Origin: Aestuariivirga sp.
GTDB lineage: Bacteria; Pseudomonadota; Alphaproteobacteria; Rhizobiales; Aestuariivirgaceae
Assembly (NCBI RefSeq): GCF_046093005.1
Contig: NZ_JBJTER010000089.1
Span: 9,816-73,815, forward strand
Direction of reading: 5' to 3'
DNA length: 64,000 nucleotides
The notes under the pieces were generated by a model, which was not told the origin of the DNA, ran no database searches, and worked only from the letters and a program-made list of their open reading frames with translations. Of the stretch, positions 36,394 to 43,457 are shown piece by piece. How positions within the stretch are numbered: position 1 is the stretch's first letter; each line of letters begins with the position of its first letter. A program made the position numbers and the translations under genes.

Positions 36394-37899
36394 GTGTCCA
36401 GAGTGGTCGTCATCGGCGCTGGGATGGGGGGATTATCCGCTGCGATTTCAATGGCTTCGCAGGGAGAAGACGTGCTGGTCCTGGAGCGTGCCGCAAGCCC
36501 TGGCGGCAAGATGCGGCGGCTTCAGGTGGGGGACTATGCGATCGATGGCGGTCCCACCGTGCTCACCATGCGGGCGGTGTTCGAGCAGATCTTCGCGCTG
36601 GCCGGGGAAAGCCTTTCGAACCATGTCACGCTGGAGCCCTTGTCGATCCTCGCCCGGCATGCCTGGAGTGCCGGCGAACGCCTTGATTTGTATGCGGATT
36701 TACAGGCTTCCGCGGATGCCATCGGGGATTTCGCGGGGGCGGCGGAGGCCAGGCGATTCCTTGAATTCAGCACGGAATCACGGCGTATTTTCGAGACGCT
36801 GGACAAGCCGTTCATGCGGTCGCAGCGGCCGAACCCGCTGACGCTGGCGACCGCCAACGGGCTTCGTGGCCTGGCCGCCATGGCCCGCATCAACCCCTTC
36901 GAGACAATGTGGAAGGGCCTCGGCCGCCATTTCCGCGACCGCCGCCTGCGCCAGCTCTTCGGGCGCTACGCAACCTATTGTGGTTCCTCGCCTTTTCTGG
37001 CTCCCGCAACGCTGATGCTGATCGCCCATGTGGAACAGGCCGGGGTGTGGACGGTGAAGGGCGGCATGCATGAGCTGGCCCTGGCACTGGAGGCGCTGGC
37101 CCGCCGCAAGGGCGTCAGCTTTCGATATGGCGCCGAGGTGACGGCAATCCGCACCGCCCGCGGGCGCGTGGCGGCGGTGGCCACGGCGGACGAAGAAATC
37201 GATTGTTCAGCGGTGATCGTCAATGCCGACGCCAATGCGTTGGCCACCGGACTGCTGGGCCGCGACGGCGCGCGGGCAGCCCGCCCGGTGGCCCCGAAAC
37301 AGCGCTCGCTCTCCGCCATCACCTGGGCCGCGGCCATTGAAACCAGGGGGTTTCCGCTGTCCCGGCACAATGTGTTCTTCTCGGGTGATTATGAGCGGGA
37401 ATTCCGTGAGCTTGCCAGCGGCTATCCCATTGAACCGACAGTCTATATTTGCGCCCAGGACCGGGATGGGCATGCGGCCGGGCCGGAGCGCCTGCTGCTG
37501 CTGGTCAATTCCCCGGCCAATGGCGATCTGGCGCCGCAACCGCCCGCCGCGGTGGAGCACGCGATGCGCCGGAAGCTTGCCGATTGCGGGTTAATTCTCG
37601 ATTGGAATCAGCAACATATCATCATGACCGACCCCGCCCGGTTTGGCCGCCTGTTTCCGGCCACCGGCGGGGCGCTGTATGGGAGGGCATCGCACGGATG
37701 GATGGCGTCATTTCAGCGGCCGGCGGCCAGGACGGCGGTGCCGGGGCTCTATCTGGCGGGGGGCAGCGTGCATCCGGGGCCGGGCGCCCCGATGGCCGCG
37801 CTCTCGGGCCTTTTGGCAGCGGAAAGCCTCATGATGTCAAAGGCTTCGATGCGGAGGTTGCAGCCGGTGGCTACCGTTGGTGGTATCTCGACGGCCTGA
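36394..37899 (+). CDS. crtD: 1-hydroxycarotenoid 3,4-desaturase
   Basis: VVIGAGMGGL, GGKMR, DGGPTVLTM, GRYATYCGSSP, GGALYGRASHGW; GTG start. Confidence 0.94.
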   Translation: MSRVVVIGAGMGGLSAAISMASQGEDVLVLERAASPGGKMRRLQVGDYAIDGGPTVLTMRAVFEQIFALAGESLSNHVTLEPLSILARHAWSAGERLDLYADLQASADAIGDFAGAAEARRFLEFSTESRRIFETLDKPFMRSQRPNPLTLATANGLRGLAAMARINPFETMWKGLGRHFRDRRLRQLFGRYATYCGSSPFLAPATLMLIAHVEQAGVWTVKGGMHELALALEALARRKGVSFRYGAEVTAIRTARGRVAAVATADEEIDCSAVIVNADANALATGLLGRDGARAARPVAPKQRSLSAITWAAAIETRGFPLSRHNVFFSGDYEREFRELASGYPIEPTVYICAQDRDGHAAGPERLLLLVNSPANGDLAPQPPAAVEHAMRRKLADCGLILDWNQQHIIMTDPARFGRLFPATGGALYGRASHGWMASFQRPAARTAVPGLYLAGGSVHPGPGAPMAALSGLLAAESLMMSKASMRRLQPVATVGGISTA

Positions 37900-38756
37900 G
37901 CGATGATGGCCGCCACGGCCTCACCATCATCGGATTCGTGGGCAGCGTGTTCTCACCCTATTATGCCTGGGCGCGGCGGCGCGGTTCCGCTGATCCCGAA
38001 AACCATTGCGCGCTCAATGTGGCGCTGTACGGCGACATTGGCCACCGCTGGAGCATGACCGAGCGCGGACGCCGGTCGATCAGCCGTTCGGCAAACCAGT
38101 TCCTTATTGGGCCCAGCGCCATGCGCTGGGAAGGCGGTGATTTGGTCATCGATATCAATGAGATAACGGTTCCTGTTCCAAGCCGGCTGAAAGGCCGGGT
38201 GCGGCTCACGCCTTCCGCCATCTGCGGCCATGAGGTGGCGCTCGATCCGCAGGGGCTCCATATCTGGCGGCCTGTGGCACCGGTCTCGCGGATCACCGCG
38301 GTGTTTGAAAATCCGAAGCTGTCCTGGAGCGGGGCGGGCTATCATGATTCGAACTGGGGCGCGGTGCCGCTGGAGGACAGTTTCGAGAGCTGGGTATGGT
38401 CCCGCGCCGCCACCAGGCATGGCGCGGCGATCATCTATGATACTGTTTTAAAAGGAGGAAAATCGGCGGGCTTCGGGCTGGACATCGCCGCCGACGGCAG
38501 CGTGCGCACCCAGCCGGCGCCGCCCCGCCAGGATATGCCCACCACCTTCTGGCGGATGGCCCGCCACATGCGCGCCAGCCGGCCCTTCCGGATTACCTCG
38601 CTGCTCGAGGATTCGCCCTTCTATTCCCGCAGCTTGCTCCGCCTCGCGACGGAGGACGGCGAGGCCGATGCGTTCCACGAGAGCCTGTCGCTCAATCGTT
38701 TTCGGAACCCCGTTGTGCAACTCATGCTGCCCTTCCGCATGCCCCGCCGGAACTGA
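37698..38756 (+). CDS. crtC: Carotenoid 1,2-hydratase
   Basis: GGYRWWYLDGLSDDGRHGLTIIGFVGSVFSPYY, YHDSNWG, LEDSPFYSR, MLPFRMPR. The start is uncertain: 37698 is the last in-frame ATG before the motif and lies inside crtD. Confidence 0.9.
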   Translation: MDGVISAAGGQDGGAGALSGGGQRASGAGRPDGRALGPFGSGKPHDVKGFDAEVAAGGYRWWYLDGLSDDGRHGLTIIGFVGSVFSPYYAWARRRGSADPENHCALNVALYGDIGHRWSMTERGRRSISRSANQFLIGPSAMRWEGGDLVIDINEITVPVPSRLKGRVRLTPSAICGHEVALDPQGLHIWRPVAPVSRITAVFENPKLSWSGAGYHDSNWGAVPLEDSFESWVWSRAATRHGAAIIYDTVLKGGKSAGFGLDIAADGSVRTQPAPPRQDMPTTFWRMARHMRASRPFRITSLLEDSPFYSRSLLRLATEDGEADAFHESLSLNRFRNPVVQLMLPFRMPRRN

Positions 38757-38777
38757 CTCCGGCACCCAAAAATCATG

Positions 38778-38836
38778 TTGCAAATCGATGCCAAAATGCA
38801 TGCTTTTTGATGCGGTAAGTTGCCAAAATCGATGCC
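38778..38836. repeat. Second phased TGC/GATGC array with A/T tracts after crtC
   Basis: TGC at 38779, 38789, 38801, 38811, 38821 and 38833; TTGC(C)AAA(A)TCGATGCC occurs twice. Confidence 0.5.
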
Positions 38837-39068: not shown

Positions 39069-39980
39069 ATGAAAAACACTGCAAAGCGGCGGCGGGCATG
39101 GTTTGCCCTTGCTGGTTTGGCGTGGCTGGCATGTTCCGGCGGGCCATCGCTTGCTGCCGAGATCAAGATCGATCCGGCGAGCCCCAAGGAGTTCCCGGCG
39201 ATCCTGATCTCCGGCGTCTTCGAGGACGGTGACGACAAGAAGTTCACCGCGCTCGCCCTCGACGTGGACAATGCCATCGTGGTGTTCGAGAGCCCGGGAG
39301 GTAACCTGCTCGCCGGACTCGGCATTGGCCGGGCGATCCGGCTCAAGGAATTCTCCACTGCCGTGGAAGGCGGCGCGCAGTGCGCCTCGGCCTGCGGGCT
39401 GGCCTGGCTCGGCGGCATCAGGCGCTTCGCGCATCCTGAAGCACAGATCGGCTTTCATGCCGCCTATATCGAAAACAACGGACAGGCCACCGAGACCGGG
39501 GCGGGAAACGCCCTGGTTGGCGCCTATCTGAACCAGCTGTCCTTGCCGCAGTCGGCCATTGTGTATCTCACCTCGGCGCCGCCGCATGACATGCAATGGC
39601 TGCCGCTCCAGGAGGCGCGGAACTACGGCATTGACCTCGAGATCATTGGTGCGCCGGAACCGGGGGCGGGCGGCGGCGGCGCCGCCTCCGCCACGGCGAG
39701 CGGCGAGGAGATCGCCGCGGCGCTCGCCGGGAACACGGTGAAAGGCAGCATGACGGAATCCGGCGCCTATGAGGAATTCTACGCCCCCGATGGCGCAATC
39801 AAGGGCGAGGACTTCAGCGGCACATGGCGCATCGACGGCGACAGCATTTGCATCAAGTACGACGACGATCCCGAAGCCTGCTGGGAAGTAAAGCTGGACG
39901 GCGGCGAAGTGACCTGGCTCGACGACGGCGAGGAGCAGGGCACGGGCGTGATCGTGGAGGGGAATCCCAACGAGTTCTGA
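39069..39980 (+). CDS. Exported two-domain hypothetical protein (ClpP/crotonase-like domain plus acidic beta-rich C-terminal domain)
   Basis: Signal peptide, ESPGG, CASAC, IGFHAAY motifs, Gly/Ala linker, acidic C-terminal domain with two Cys. Confidence 0.65.
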   Translation: MKNTAKRRRAWFALAGLAWLACSGGPSLAAEIKIDPASPKEFPAILISGVFEDGDDKKFTALALDVDNAIVVFESPGGNLLAGLGIGRAIRLKEFSTAVEGGAQCASACGLAWLGGIRRFAHPEAQIGFHAAYIENNGQATETGAGNALVGAYLNQLSLPQSAIVYLTSAPPHDMQWLPLQEARNYGIDLEIIGAPEPGAGGGGAASATASGEEIAAALAGNTVKGSMTESGAYEEFYAPDGAIKGEDFSGTWRIDGDSICIKYDDDPEACWEVKLDGGEVTWLDDGEEQGTGVIVEGNPNEF

Positions 39981-40008
39981 GGCCGTGGAACGCTTGGCGC
40001 CCCGCCAC

Positions 40009-40383
40009 TCAGGCGGCGGCGCGCAAATCGAAATCCGCGTGGATCACATCGAAGGGCACATGGACTTTTCCGCCGCCGGTGCGCTCAACAATTCCCCAGC
40101 CGGCGAGCAGCGTCACATCGGCGTGGACCCGCTTAACATCCCGCTCCAGCGCGCGGGCGAGGCCGCGCACGCTCATCGGCCCCGCCTTTTGCAGGTGCTC
40201 CGTGAGTTGCCAGCGCTTGGGGCTCAGGACGGAAAACAGCTGGGCGGGCGAGCTGAAAATGAAAGTGGCGGCGGGATCGCCGGACTTGCCGCTTTTCCAC
40301 GCACGCACGAAGTTCCTGCCCATCGCCGCAACAACGGCTTTGGCGCTGTCATCACGCTGAATTCGAATGACCGCCCGTCTCAT
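40009..40383 (-). CDS. HTH antitoxin-like regulator (HVO_A0114/TumA type)
   Basis: LSPKRWQL, GPMSVRGLARALERDVKRVHADV HTH; 4-bp overlap with the upstream DUF6516 gene. Confidence 0.75.
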   Translation of the reverse strand: MRRAVIRIQRDDSAKAVVAAMGRNFVRAWKSGKSGDPAATFIFSSPAQLFSVLSPKRWQLTEHLQKAGPMSVRGLARALERDVKRVHADVTLLAGWGIVERTGGGKVHVPFDVIHADFDLRAAA

Positions 40384-40664
40384 TCCGGCATCCTCCTGTA
40401 GACTTCCAAAAGAAAATCCCTCATCAGCGCTTCCACCGAGGTGAAACTGTATGGTTTCTCATCGCCGTCCAGGTGGCGGTGATCACCTTTGCCGCGCTCG
40501 TTGTCAAAACCTACCAGTCTTTTGCCGTTCCGGCCGAAATAGAGGCGGTATTTGTAGGCATGGCGGCTTCCCGGTAGCGGTTTTGGAAGCTTCCAGATGA
40601 CCATTTCAACGATCGCTCCATCCGGCAAGACGCGCTTTTCCCGGTGAATGAGCTGCGCTGTCAT
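40380..40664 (-). CDS. DUF6516/TumE-family toxin
   Basis: EMVIWKLPKP, H-x-YKYRL, FDNERGKGDHRH, Y-x-F-x-S; 94 aa. Confidence 0.78.
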   Translation of the reverse strand: MTAQLIHREKRVLPDGAIVEMVIWKLPKPLPGSRHAYKYRLYFGRNGKRLVGFDNERGKGDHRHLDGDEKPYSFTSVEALMRDFLLEVYRRMPE

Positions 40665-40811
40665 GTTGGCTTTTGTGCCAACACTTTTGACTGGTTGTCA
40701 AGGATCAGGAGATGGATGGCGATAGAGCAAGTGCCGCCCACGGCAGACGGCAAGATGCCCGCAAACTTCCTTCTTCCGCCGCGCCAGCGGTGGGAGAAGG
40801 GCCGAAATCGA

Positions 40812-40919
40812 TTACTTCCGCTTATCCCGCCTGAGCTTCCATAACTCCCAGAAGCCGAAGCCCAGGACCAGGCCCAGGACGAGGAGCATTTCCGCGAAAA
40901 TGAGCGAATCCGGGCTCAT
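40812..40919 (-). CDS. 35-aa single-TM peptide translationally coupled to crtB
   Basis: MSPDSLIFAEMLLVLGLVLGFGFWELWKLRRDKRK*; its ATG overlaps the crtB TGA (ATGA). Confidence 0.65.
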   Translation of the reverse strand: MSPDSLIFAEMLLVLGLVLGFGFWELWKLRRDKRK

Positions 40920-41944
40920 GAGCGCTGCTTTTCCAGCCTGGTGAACAGTTCGGTGAGCCATTGCGCGCGTTCGTCCAGGGTGCGCGGCGGGCGCTGCGGA
41001 TCGCCGGCGCGCGAGACCGCATCGACCAGGAACTGCGCCTGCGGCAGGGCAGGCGTGCCGCAGGGCGGCGTGCGCGCCGCCGCGGTGGCGATGGCGCCGC
41101 CCAGCAGGGCGAGTTTTCGCAGCGTCGGCACCACGGCGCGGCGGCCTACGCTGTCGCCGCCATTGCGCTCCACCTCGCGGCCGATGCCGGCATAAAGCAG
41201 CCGCGCGGCGTTGATGGACGGCCGGCAGCCCATGGGCAGCATGGCGATGCCCGCGAGGCTCCGCGCATAAAGCACATCCGCTTCGGCCAGCAGCTGGCCC
41301 ACCACGCGGGCAAGCGCGGGCGAGTGGCGCGGCGCCGCGACAAAGCCATCGGCATCCACACCCGCGTTCGCCAGCCAGTCGAGCGGCAGGTAGACGCGGC
41401 CGTTGCGCGCATCCTCGCCCACATCCCGCGCGATGTTGGTGAGTTGCATGGCAATGCCAAGGTCGCAGGCCCGGGCAATGGCCTCAGGCGCGCGCACCTG
41501 CATGACCAGCGACATCATCGCGCCAACCGTGCCGGCCACGCGCACGGCATAGGCGTGCAGCTCGCCAAGGTTTGGATAGCGGCGGCCGCTGGCGTCCCAG
41601 GCGAAGCCTTCGATGAGGGCTTCCGGAATCTCGCGCGGGATCGCGAAGCGCGCCGCCACGTCGGCAAAGGCGCGGTCGGCGGGGTCATCGCCCGGCGCGC
41701 CGCGGTAGATGCGGTCAAGCCGCTCAAGCAGCGTGTCCACCGCGGCGCGGCTGTCCGGCGTGCGGTCAACAAGGTCATCGGCCACGCGGCAAAAGGCATA
41801 GAGCGAGCGCGAGGCATCGCACACCCGCTGCGGCAGCAGCAGCGAGGCGGTGTAGAAGGTTTTGGAGCCATCGCGGATCATCTGGCGGCACTGCGCCAGA
41901 TCGGCGGGGCTCACCAGGGAACGGTCAGGCGAATGCTGCAGCAT
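40916..41944 (-). CDS. crtB: Phytoene synthase
   Basis: GSKTFY, LYAFCRVADDLVD, RVAGTVG, QLTNIARDVGED, GRVYLP. Confidence 0.95.
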   Translation of the reverse strand: MLQHSPDRSLVSPADLAQCRQMIRDGSKTFYTASLLLPQRVCDASRSLYAFCRVADDLVDRTPDSRAAVDTLLERLDRIYRGAPGDDPADRAFADVAARFAIPREIPEALIEGFAWDASGRRYPNLGELHAYAVRVAGTVGAMMSLVMQVRAPEAIARACDLGIAMQLTNIARDVGEDARNGRVYLPLDWLANAGVDADGFVAAPRHSPALARVVGQLLAEADVLYARSLAGIAMLPMGCRPSINAARLLYAGIGREVERNGGDSVGRRAVVPTLRKLALLGGAIATAAARTPPCGTPALPQAQFLVDAVSRAGDPQRPPRTLDERAQWLTELFTRLEKQRS

Positions 41945-43457
41945 CAGGCACCACGGTGTCGAGAATGCGGGCGGAGGAAATGACGCCGGGAAGGCCAGCG
42001 CCGGGGTGGGTGCCGGCCCCCACCAGGAACAGGTTCTCGATGTCCTCCGCCTTGTTGTTGGGCCGGAACCAGGCGCTTTGCAGCAGCACCGGCTCCAGCC
42101 CGAAGGCGGCCCCCTTGTAGGAGCCAAGCCGGTTTTCGAAATCGATGGGCGTGATCAGCTTCTCCGTGACGATGCTTGCCGAGAGGCCGGGCAGCAGCGT
42201 GGCCTCGAGATGCGCGGCAATCGCCGCGCGGTAGGCTGGCGCGCGGGCCTTCCAGTCGATGCCGGAATCCTGGTGTGGCACCGGCGAAAGCACATAGAAA
42301 CTGTCGCAGCCCGCGGGCGCCAGTTGCGGGTCCGACGCCGTGGGGCGGTGCAGATAGAGGCTGAAATCCTCCGCGAGGTGCTTTCGCGTGAAGATGTCAT
42401 CGAGCAGGCCGCGGTAGCGTGGACCCATCATGATGGTGTGGTGGCGCACGCCGGGATATTGGCGGCCGGTGCCGAAATACCAGACGAACAGGCTCATCGA
42501 ATAGCGGGCGCGGGCGAGCCTCGCATCCGACCAGCGGCGGCGCGGCGCTTTGGCCAGCAGTTTCATGTAGGTATGCGCGGTCTCCGCATTGGAGACGACG
42601 ACCGAAGCCGCGACGGCGCGGCCATCGGCGAGCCGGATGCCGGTGGCGCGGCGGCCATCGAGGGTGATCTCCGCCACCTCGCTGTTGAGGTGAATGGTTC
42701 CGCCCTGGCGTTCGATCAGCCGCGCCATGGCGGCGACCAGCGCGCCGGTGCCGCCGATGGCGCAATGCACGCCGAACTGGCGCTCGAGATAGGCGATCAT
42801 GCTGTAGATGGCAGTGACCTTGAACGGGTTGCCGCCGATGAACAGCGGGTGGAAGCTCAGCGCCATACGGATCTTGGGATCCTTCACGCGCGCCGACACA
42901 TGCTGGTAGACGGTGCGCCAAGCACCGAGCCGCACGAGGTCAGGCGCGATGCGCACCATGCTCATCGGCGAGCCGAAGGGCACATGGCCCAGCTGCTCGA
43001 AGCCGATGCGGTAGATCGCCTCGCTTTCGGCCATGAAGCGCTCATAGCCCTCGACATCGCCCGGCGAAATCCGCGCCACTTCCGCGCGCATGCTGGCGGG
43101 GTCGCCCGAACAGGTCATCACCGTGCCGTCATGGAAGCGGATGTCATAGAAGGGGTCGAGGGCCTTGAGCGTCACGTCATCGGAGAACTTCGCCCCGGCC
43201 AGCGCCCAGAGTTCCTCCAAAATGAAGGGGGCGGTGATGATGGTCGGGCCGGCATCGAAGGTGAAACCGTCCTGGCGGAACACCGAAGCGCGGCCGCCCG
43301 GCTGCTCCAGCTTCTCATAAACGCTCACCCGGTAGCCGCGCGCCCCGAGCCTGATCGCCGCCGCCAGACCGCCCAGCCCGCTGCCGATCACCACGGCATG
43401 CGGGCGCGAACCCACGGTCCGGGCGGGGGGCGGCGGATGTTCGGTGTCTGTAAACAT
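41925..43457 (-). CDS. crtI: Phytoene desaturase
   Basis: VIGSGLGGLAAA, FDAGPTIITAP, HPLFIGGNPF, GAGTHPGAGLPGV. Confidence 0.96.
   Translation of the reverse strand: MFTDTEHPPPPARTVGSRPHAVVIGSGLGGLAAAIRLGARGYRVSVYEKLEQPGGRASVFRQDGFTFDAGPTIITAPFILEELWALAGAKFSDDVTLKALDPFYDIRFHDGTVMTCSGDPASMRAEVARISPGDVEGYERFMAESEAIYRIGFEQLGHVPFGSPMSMVRIAPDLVRLGAWRTVYQHVSARVKDPKIRMALSFHPLFIGGNPFKVTAIYSMIAYLERQFGVHCAIGGTGALVAAMARLIERQGGTIHLNSEVAEITLDGRRATGIRLADGRAVAASVVVSNAETAHTYMKLLAKAPRRRWSDARLARARYSMSLFVWYFGTGRQYPGVRHHTIMMGPRYRGLLDDIFTRKHLAEDFSLYLHRPTASDPQLAPAGCDSFYVLSPVPHQDSGIDWKARAPAYRAAIAAHLEATLLPGLSASIVTEKLITPIDFENRLGSYKGAAFGLEPVLLQSAWFRPNNKAEDIENLFLVGAGTHPGAGLPGVISSARILDTVVPDAAAFA

Follow-up and report, generated by a model that had tools for sequence, protein, structure and literature searches.

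In the 64,000-nucleotide stretch of DNA analyzed here (the window), which comes from a freshwater Aestuariivirga-type bacterium, two small genes lie between the carotenoid genes crtB and crtC. Judged from sequence, this pair at 40009–40664 is an intact, self-contained copy of a widespread TumE-type cassette, and we consider it likely that it works as an autonomous, self-regulated type II toxin–antitoxin (TA) system, with the predicted TumE toxin encoded first and a putative antitoxin of the ArsR/SmtB-like winged-helix type second. The most interesting by-product of the analysis appears to be a design shared across the family, in which promoter, operator and start codon are combined, together with the covariation of a lysine or arginine of the second protein with a base of the operator. 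With respect to its surroundings, the cassette appears to be accessory passenger DNA, with no demonstrable role in pigment synthesis.

A TumE gene coupled to a winged-helix gene

The first gene of the pair encodes a 94-amino-acid (aa) protein that matches the Pfam family PF20126 (TumE, formerly DUF6516) at 49.8 bits (E value 3.5e-13) against a cut-off of 23.4, the match spanning profile positions 2–79 of 81, and TumE homologues align with the protein from its residue 1. The second gene encodes 124 aa that match PF25212 (HVO_A0114), a winged helix-turn-helix (wHTH) family, at 93.6 bits against a cut-off of 27.6; with the NCBIfam metalloregulator model NF033788 the score is 21.4 bits, below the cut-off of 55, and the protein is thus not placed among the metalloregulators. 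The letters TCAT at 40380–40383, which read ATGA on the coding strand, are common to both open reading frames (ORFs), which therefore overlap by 4 bp. An earlier reading of the same sequence, made without database searches (the original prediction), had described a DUF6516-type gene overlapping a helix-turn-helix (HTH) gene by 4 bp and had proposed a hidden Markov model search for DUF6516 as a check. The overlap and both family assignments are borne out, with PF20126 recovered above its cut-off.

A scan of species-representative genomes returned 483 loci with a TumE relative, the best of them with 76% identity, and 80 of the 483 were kept for locus analysis. In all 80, a homologue of the HTH gene comes directly after tumE on the same strand, and about 62 of 77 homologous loci retain the 4-bp ATGA overlap; two small, co-directional and coupled genes that always occur as a pair are what is expected of a type II TA system. 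Protein searches widen the family further: one returned 691 clusters, with PF20126 on all 120 relatives listed, and a profile search against 1.84 billion representatives returned 1939 clusters at E ≤ 0.001. Several close relatives are labelled "toxin-antitoxin system TumE family protein" in RefSeq.

A predicted promoter and operator combined with the start codon

The control region upstream of tumE was compared across 81 loci, and Shine–Dalgarno (SD) sequences across 72 (features of the window are collected in Table 1). A −35 hexamer with at least five of six matches to TTGACA is present at 64 of the 81 loci, the spacer that follows it being 17 nt long in 42 of those 64. The 18-bp palindrome next to tumE conforms to a family pattern, G(T/A)TG(G/T/A)C-N6-G(C/A/T)CAAC, of which at least 10 of the 12 arm bases are kept at 60 of the 81 loci, and its centre reads CATAAT or CATAAA in most relatives, at the same position as CACAAA in the window. 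The start codon abuts the palindrome at 71 of the 81 loci. The resulting order of −35 hexamer, 17 nt, −10 hexamer inside the palindrome, 7 nt and ATG is seen across Alpha-, Beta- and Gammaproteobacteria. With its end 7 nt upstream of the A of the ATG, the −10 hexamer stands at the usual distance from a transcription start located there. An SD core is absent before tumE at 70 of the 72 loci compared, and present before the HTH gene at all 72, where it extends to at least 5 nt of the SD sequence in 63.

Taken by itself, the first palindrome is unremarkable, as by chance a window would contain its pattern, with up to one mismatch, 0.32 times, and at least one occurrence was present in 28 of 100 shuffles. 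Its significance thus lies in its position and conservation, not in its mere occurrence.

The recognition helix of the HTH protein is nearly invariant (R-D-V-K/R-R-V-H), with a single variable residue, at position 84, and it is this residue that covaries with base 5 of the operator half-site. Proteins with K84 are found with G at this base in 91 of 114 half-sites, and in 20 of 22 half-sites of proteins with R84 the base is A or T (91/23 versus 2/20; Fisher p = 3e-10, a value that ignores kinship among the loci and so overstates their independence). R84 occurs in alphaproteobacterial loci and in metagenome-assembled genomes labelled gammaproteobacterial.

On the basis of the conserved geometry, the asymmetry in SD sequences and the covariation between protein and operator, a leaderless, self-repressed tumE operon, which the original prediction had read from the spacing in this one sequence, is now well supported by comparative data. 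The wHTH fold, the palindrome and the covariation also agree with what is expected of type II TA systems, in which the antitoxin binds an operator in its own promoter, binding being in this case a prediction.

The two palindromes upstream of tumE that had been pointed out in the original prediction, the second of them containing TTGACA, are confirmed by reading of the sequence. We rejected the second as an operator, since it is present at that place in only one of the 81 loci, namely the window itself. One of its arms is already altered in L165, a sister lineage with about 90% identity, and the conserved element at its position is the −35 box, TTGACAAC. The second palindrome is thus probably a chance feature.

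Two observations on L165 may be added here. Its tumE gene has been called from an ATG that was created inside the centre of the palindrome (L165:437–733, MKANM..., 98 aa), unlike the family-conserved start, which is the ATG that follows the palindrome. Its TumE protein also carries the substitution H35R at a nearly invariant position.

Predicted structures of the two proteins

In the TumE alignment the residues D54-N-E-R-G-K-G are invariant, as are H62, H64 and G67, and D61 is present in at least 90% of the sequences. The AlphaFold 2 (AF2) model of the 94-aa protein, which has a predicted local distance difference test score of 94, consists of six strands and a C-terminal helix, and places this conserved block on a beta-hairpin. 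The fold of the family has been described as alpha+beta, with an antiparallel seven-strand sheet packed by two helices (PMC10584680). Compared with that description alone, the modelled TumE of the window, with six strands and one helix, is shorter than the family fold.

In a study of this family, six out of six TumE proteins stopped the growth of E. coli and were neutralized by their partners (Durairaj et al., Nature 2023; PMC10584680). One of the six reduced 35S-methionine incorporation, indicating inhibition of translation, and an RNase activity was proposed, not shown. The same authors likewise found TumE to be without resemblance to solved structures (PMC10584680). As no solved structure resembles the 94-aa protein, our view of its mechanism is drawn from their work.

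For the 124-aa protein the AF2 model has an ArsR/SmtB-like wHTH domain at residues 46–116, preceded by 40 N-terminal residues of low confidence. The top Foldseek matches are ArsR, CzrA, SmtB, CadC and PH1932, and the wHTH domain superposes on CzrA and SmtB with a root mean square deviation of about 2.3 Å (2.3–2.7 Å over about 65 residues among ArsR/SmtB-type repressors). Such low confidence is often seen in toxin-neutralizing segments, and the N-terminal stretch may be one of these.

Spread and decay of the cassette

Relatives of the cassette are found on 74 plasmids, of which 39 are mobilizable or conjugative; on pRL7 of Rhizobium johnstonii 3841 the pair adjoins an IS3 transposase. Three copies lie 219–387 bp after a tRNA gene, and an integrase-like gene, recognized by eye, lies downstream of one of them. 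Of the 80 loci, 146 nearest neighbours represent 130 different Pfam families, and no single family is shared by more than six of these neighbours. In four loci (L030, L033, L052 and L038) in-frame stops or a frameshift interrupt the toxin gene, the HTH gene of each being whole, and the reverse, a broken HTH gene beside a whole tumE, was not found at any locus examined. Spread that is independent of context and decay of the toxin before the antitoxin are both expected of type II TA systems, and taken together this distribution and asymmetric decay appear to be the behaviour of a selfish, mobile type II TA cassette.

Many type II TA pairs defend against phages, and it could be argued that the same machinery serves mainly for abortive infection, with the toxin released when the infection shuts off host transcription. 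That some relatives are carried by plasmids, and others lie in tRNA-linked islands beside an integrase, would be in keeping with such a role, which is suggested by analogy. However, TumE has no PADLOC match, the HTH protein has weak CasR-like matches only, and the neighbour families that occur most commonly include no known defence genes. We therefore regard defence as an unlikely main role.

Proposed working of the cassette

The following model would account for an autonomous, self-regulated type II TA system. A sigma-70-type promoter (TTGACA, 18 nt, CACAAA) would start transcription at the A of the tumE ATG or 1 nt before it, and the toxin would then be translated from a leaderless mRNA. The antitoxin would be made from the same transcript by means of its strong AGGAGG and the ATGA overlap, which together would keep it in excess although it is encoded by the second gene. 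An antitoxin dimer, alone or with the toxin, may bind the 18-bp palindrome over the −10 hexamer, start site and start codon, and so repress the operon, while the poorly ordered N-terminal 40 residues of the antitoxin may neutralize the toxin. Toxin that is set free would block translation, as has been shown for other TumE proteins.

The limited RNA data that bear on this model come mostly from a Limnohabitans-type homologue (L077). In a lake metatranscriptome, one contig of this homologue begins 26 nt inside tumE and continues as far as the HTH gene's end; the 70 nt before the start of the contig are without cover in that run. This agrees with a bicistronic message that starts near the ATG, the start itself being predicted.

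Two further observations concern the L077 locus (L077:5896–6754). At a distance of 219 bp its cassette follows a tRNA-Arg gene, and an integrase-like gene, recognized by eye, comes after the cassette. Contigs from two lake metatranscriptomes connect the sequence behind this cassette (up to 6754), via 15 other letters, with the sequence in front of it (from 5896), which leads back by 859. This junction could be a tandem or rearranged island in other strains.

Several points weigh against the reading of the pair as a leaderless, self-repressed TA operon. In another run, low-depth contigs extend across the L077 promoter. RNA from the window itself amounts to one metatranscriptome contig of 176 nt (39969–40144, 96% identical) over the 3' end of the HTH gene, and this could be DNA carry-over. 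The CACAAA of the window is the weakest −10 variant seen in the family and its spacer is 18 nt long, and on both grounds the promoter may be feeble; the statistic for the K84/R84 covariation takes no account of phylogeny. By sequence or by fold, TumE matches no solved structure, and no match was found in the PDB. The validated TumE–TumA pairs (subcluster 1a) are described as antitoxin-first and have other antitoxins, whereas the pair in the window is toxin-first with a 124-aa PF25212 wHTH protein. Finally, no bench test of toxicity, neutralization or DNA binding was found for the toxin-first wHTH branch in the literature searched.

The last of these points would also be in line with an arrangement that is not a TA system at all, consisting of a small transcription factor and a non-toxic accessory protein, either ligand-binding or an enzyme, that modulates the repressor; so would a TumE of 94 aa that is shorter than the family fold, and the failure of TumE to match any nuclease-like fold. 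Against such an arrangement stand the clear Pfam membership of TumE, in a family of which 6/6 members examined were toxic (PMC10584680), the loci in which a broken toxin gene always stands beside an intact partner, and a patchy, context-free and plasmid-borne distribution, the last two being as a TA pair predicts. We consider this arrangement quite improbable, and a type II TA system remains our preferred explanation of the pair.

A bolder extension of the TA model, to which we give a rather low though not negligible probability, is that across the family synthesis of the toxin always proceeds from a leaderless mRNA with its first codon touching the operator, and that of the antitoxin by way of a strong SD sequence, so that the toxin:antitoxin ratio would follow the capacity of the cell for leaderless (70S-type) initiation. 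The cassette might then be a direct sensor of translational state or stress, beyond what is brought about by decay of the antitoxin. If true, the pairing of K84 or R84 with the operator base would be a simple recognition code for the PF25212 winged helix.

Setting in the carotenoid gene cluster

The cassette lies between crtB and crtC, as had been stated in the original prediction, and shares this gap with two further ORFs, orf35 and orf303 (Table 1). Around crtB and crtC there are crtI, crtD, crtE, crtF and bch genes. CrtC, which has a full-length NCBIfam match, has no Pfam match at E ≤ 0.001. The crtB genes of the best relatives are 77–89% identical to that of the window.

Table 1. Features of the cassette and of the crtB/crtC gap in the window. 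For features on the minus strand, the order of the two coordinates is that used in the analysis.
Feature	Position	Strand	Remarks
tumE-like toxin gene	40664..40380	minus	94 aa; start ATG 40664..40662; Pfam PF20126
Winged-helix antitoxin-type gene (TumA by position)	40383..40009	minus	124 aa; Pfam PF25212
ATGA stop/start overlap (putative translational coupling)	40380..40383	minus	plus-strand letters TCAT; read in sequence
Shine–Dalgarno sequence AGGAGG of the antitoxin gene	40397..40392	minus	8 nt upstream of its ATG, within the 3' end of tumE
First palindrome, GTTGGC-TTTTGT-GCCAAC, 18 bp, operator-type	40665-40682		abuts the tumE ATG; conserved in the family
−10-like hexamer CACAAA	40672..40677	minus	central in the palindrome; 7 nt upstream of the A of the ATG
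−35 hexamer TTGACA (family consensus TTGACAAC)	40701..40696	minus	perfect; 18-nt spacer to the −10 hexamer
Second palindrome, TTGAC-TGGTT-GTCAA	40687-40701		coding strand begins with TTGACA
Hairpin after orf35, terminator-like, weak U-tract	40769..40800	minus	RNA fold; upstream of the cassette promoter
orf35, 35-aa hydrophobic ORF (MSPDSLIFAEMLLVLGLVLGFGFWELWKLRRDKRK)	40812-40919	minus	overlaps the crtB stop by ATGA
crtB	40916-41950	minus	PF00494; NF045921
orf303, 303 aa, signal-peptide-like N-terminus	39069-39980	plus	convergent with the cassette; belongs to the same extra DNA
crtC	~37896-38756	plus	NF045922, E value 5e-86, full length, 288 bits, below the equivalog cut-off of 400

The small hydrophobic orf35 is kept after crtB in all Aestuariivirga-type relatives, with DNA homology reaching to about position 40814; it has a ratio of nonsynonymous to synonymous substitution rates (dN/dS) of 0.12 against L165, and no NCBIfam match. 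The sequence of the hairpin that follows it is kept in L165 and in L081, and an analogous hairpin is found in L086, a relative without the insert. The predicted product of orf303 has a Gly-rich linker and a C-terminal domain, with a weak ClpP-like match (17 bits, below cut-off). This ORF is 84–88% identical in the sister lineage; it is absent from the crtB/crtC gap in the relatives, and present together with the cassette in L161–L165.

In the window, orf303 and the cassette fill about 2 kb of the gap between crtB and crtC. In five relatives (L083, L085, L086, L088 and L089) the end of orf35 is separated from the end of crtC by about 13–350 bp. The gap of L082 (L082:11143–14477) holds a pair of paralogous ORFs, each about 530 aa long and with a signal-peptide-like start, and that of L087 (L087:11140–13158) holds one hydrophobic ORF of 672 aa. 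Because the contents of the gap differ among L082, L087, the window and the five near-empty relatives, the gap between the convergent crtIB-orf35 and crtDC units appears to be a variable cargo spot.

A 12-nt direct repeat (38822–38833 and 40801–40812) was rejected as a target-site duplication of the insert and is treated as chance, because L165, the sister lineage, does not preserve it. Just past the stop codon of crtC, and before orf303 begins, there is also an imperfect direct repeat, GTTGCAAATCGATGCC at 38777–38792 and GTTGCCAAAATCGATGCC at 38819–38836, spaced 42 bp; the stretch 38777–38836 that contains it is poorly conserved in L165 and variable between metagenome strains.

Age and maintenance of the insertion

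The order crtB, orf35, tumE, HTH gene, orf303/307, crtC is found in four contigs of one study, with 99–99.9% identity, and the same order from crtB to crtC is also found in lineage L165, the DNA of which is about 90% identical. The species-representative contig L081 ends exactly at the −35 hexamer of the cassette. In four other studies, low-depth contigs cover the cassette with 0–2 differences, and some of them join it to crtB or orf303. A junction in one metagenome that skips 2419 was disregarded, its shorter side being 27 letters long. When compared with L165, tumE has a dN/dS of 0.28 and the HTH gene one of 0.09, from which it follows that both genes of the cassette are maintained by purifying selection.

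Identity to L165 is 96–99% for the cassette versus 79–92% for crtB, orf35 and orf303, with a synonymous divergence (dS) of 0.08–0.10 for the former versus 0.44–0.67 for the latter. Such a low divergence might be taken as a sign of recent transfer of the cassette, but we rejected this explanation, as the 3' end of crtC is equally similar to L165. The pattern of divergence is better read as mosaic recombination, and would not then reflect a special history of the cassette.

No apparent link to pigment genes

The original prediction had suggested that the cassette could be an addiction module guarding the photosynthesis gene cluster against deletion, or else a stress switch beside pigment genes. 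Chromosomal TA pairs can stabilize neighbouring DNA. The location of the cassette inside the cluster, where it has been kept intact in two lineages whose DNA differs by about 10% and in populations from several studies, could be seen as favouring protection of the cluster. However, neither of these roles is borne out by the comparison of loci. No TumE or HTH gene lies within 10 kb of crtB in any of 80 other crtB loci, 8 Aestuariivirga-type relatives included, and no crtB, crtC, crtI or orf303 lies within 6 kb of the cassette in any of 80 cassette loci. The gap itself contains unrelated cargo in L082 and L087 and nothing in the five other relatives.

Further points against these roles are that the cassette has its own promoter behind the hairpin that ends the crtIB unit, and that the 64 kb hold no second operator: a single occurrence of the operator pattern was found, also when the degenerate form of the family was allowed. 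Thus nothing suggests that the HTH protein controls pigment promoters. We consider it very improbable that the cassette protects the photosynthesis and carotenoid genes from deletion or is a stress switch for them. The GC content of tumE, 54–59%, compares with 65–70% around it, and the most likely origin of the cassette is a chance insertion into a gap where the photosynthesis gene cluster tolerates extra DNA. The cassette has little meaning for the biology of photosynthesis, and as a passenger in a variable gap it should be annotated as such, not as a pigment regulator.

Comparison with known systems

The present analysis defines a large branch of the TumE superfamily in which the gene of the predicted toxin comes first, comprising at least 483 genomic loci and 74 plasmids, and provides it with a readable promoter-operator, a predicted leaderless mode of toxin translation and a candidate pairing of residue with base in operator recognition.

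The six validated TumE–TumA pairs belong to subcluster 1a and come from Gammaproteobacteria; in cluster 1 the DUF6516 gene mostly comes second, after that of its partner, and the partner families include one remote RelB homologue; the antitoxin constructs were short (PMC10584680). The statement in the original prediction that DUF6516 with a downstream HTH gene had been validated is thus inaccurate, since validation concerned subcluster 1a, and in cluster 1 DUF6516 is mostly the downstream gene (PMC10584680). The pair in the window falls outside subcluster 1a, from which it is set apart by the text of that paper and by the lengths of the constructs. It resembles TumE–TumA in its toxin domain, which scores above the Pfam cut-off, its bicistronic arrangement, its predicted DNA-binding partner and its patchy distribution, and differs in the length of the toxin, which at 94 aa is shorter than the TumE of the TumE–TumA superfamily.

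In HigBA, MqsRA and HicAB the toxin gene is upstream, the antitoxin has a folded DNA-binding domain, and self-repression acts via palindromes in the promoter. The cassette in the window shares with these systems the upstream toxin, the DNA-binding antitoxin, here predicted, and the promoter palindrome, but the folds of its toxin and antitoxin are unrelated to theirs. A further difference is that the toxin cistron of the window is predicted to be leaderless, while its antitoxin cistron has a strong SD sequence and the ATGA overlap.

With the ArsR/SmtB repressors CzrA, SmtB, CadC and NolR, the putative antitoxin has in common the wHTH fold and, if the model is correct, probably also the binding of a dimer to an inverted repeat. 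In contrast to these repressors, it has an additional 40 residues at the N-terminus, and its score with the metalloregulator model is below cut-off.

Leaderless mRNAs of TA systems are frequent in Mycobacterium and other Actinobacteria, and with these the cassette shares a −10 hexamer at a distance of about 7 nt from the start codon, with no SD sequence present. What distinguishes it from the actinobacterial examples is that this design is conserved across a proteobacterial cassette family, is fused to the putative operator, and is confined to the toxin cistron.

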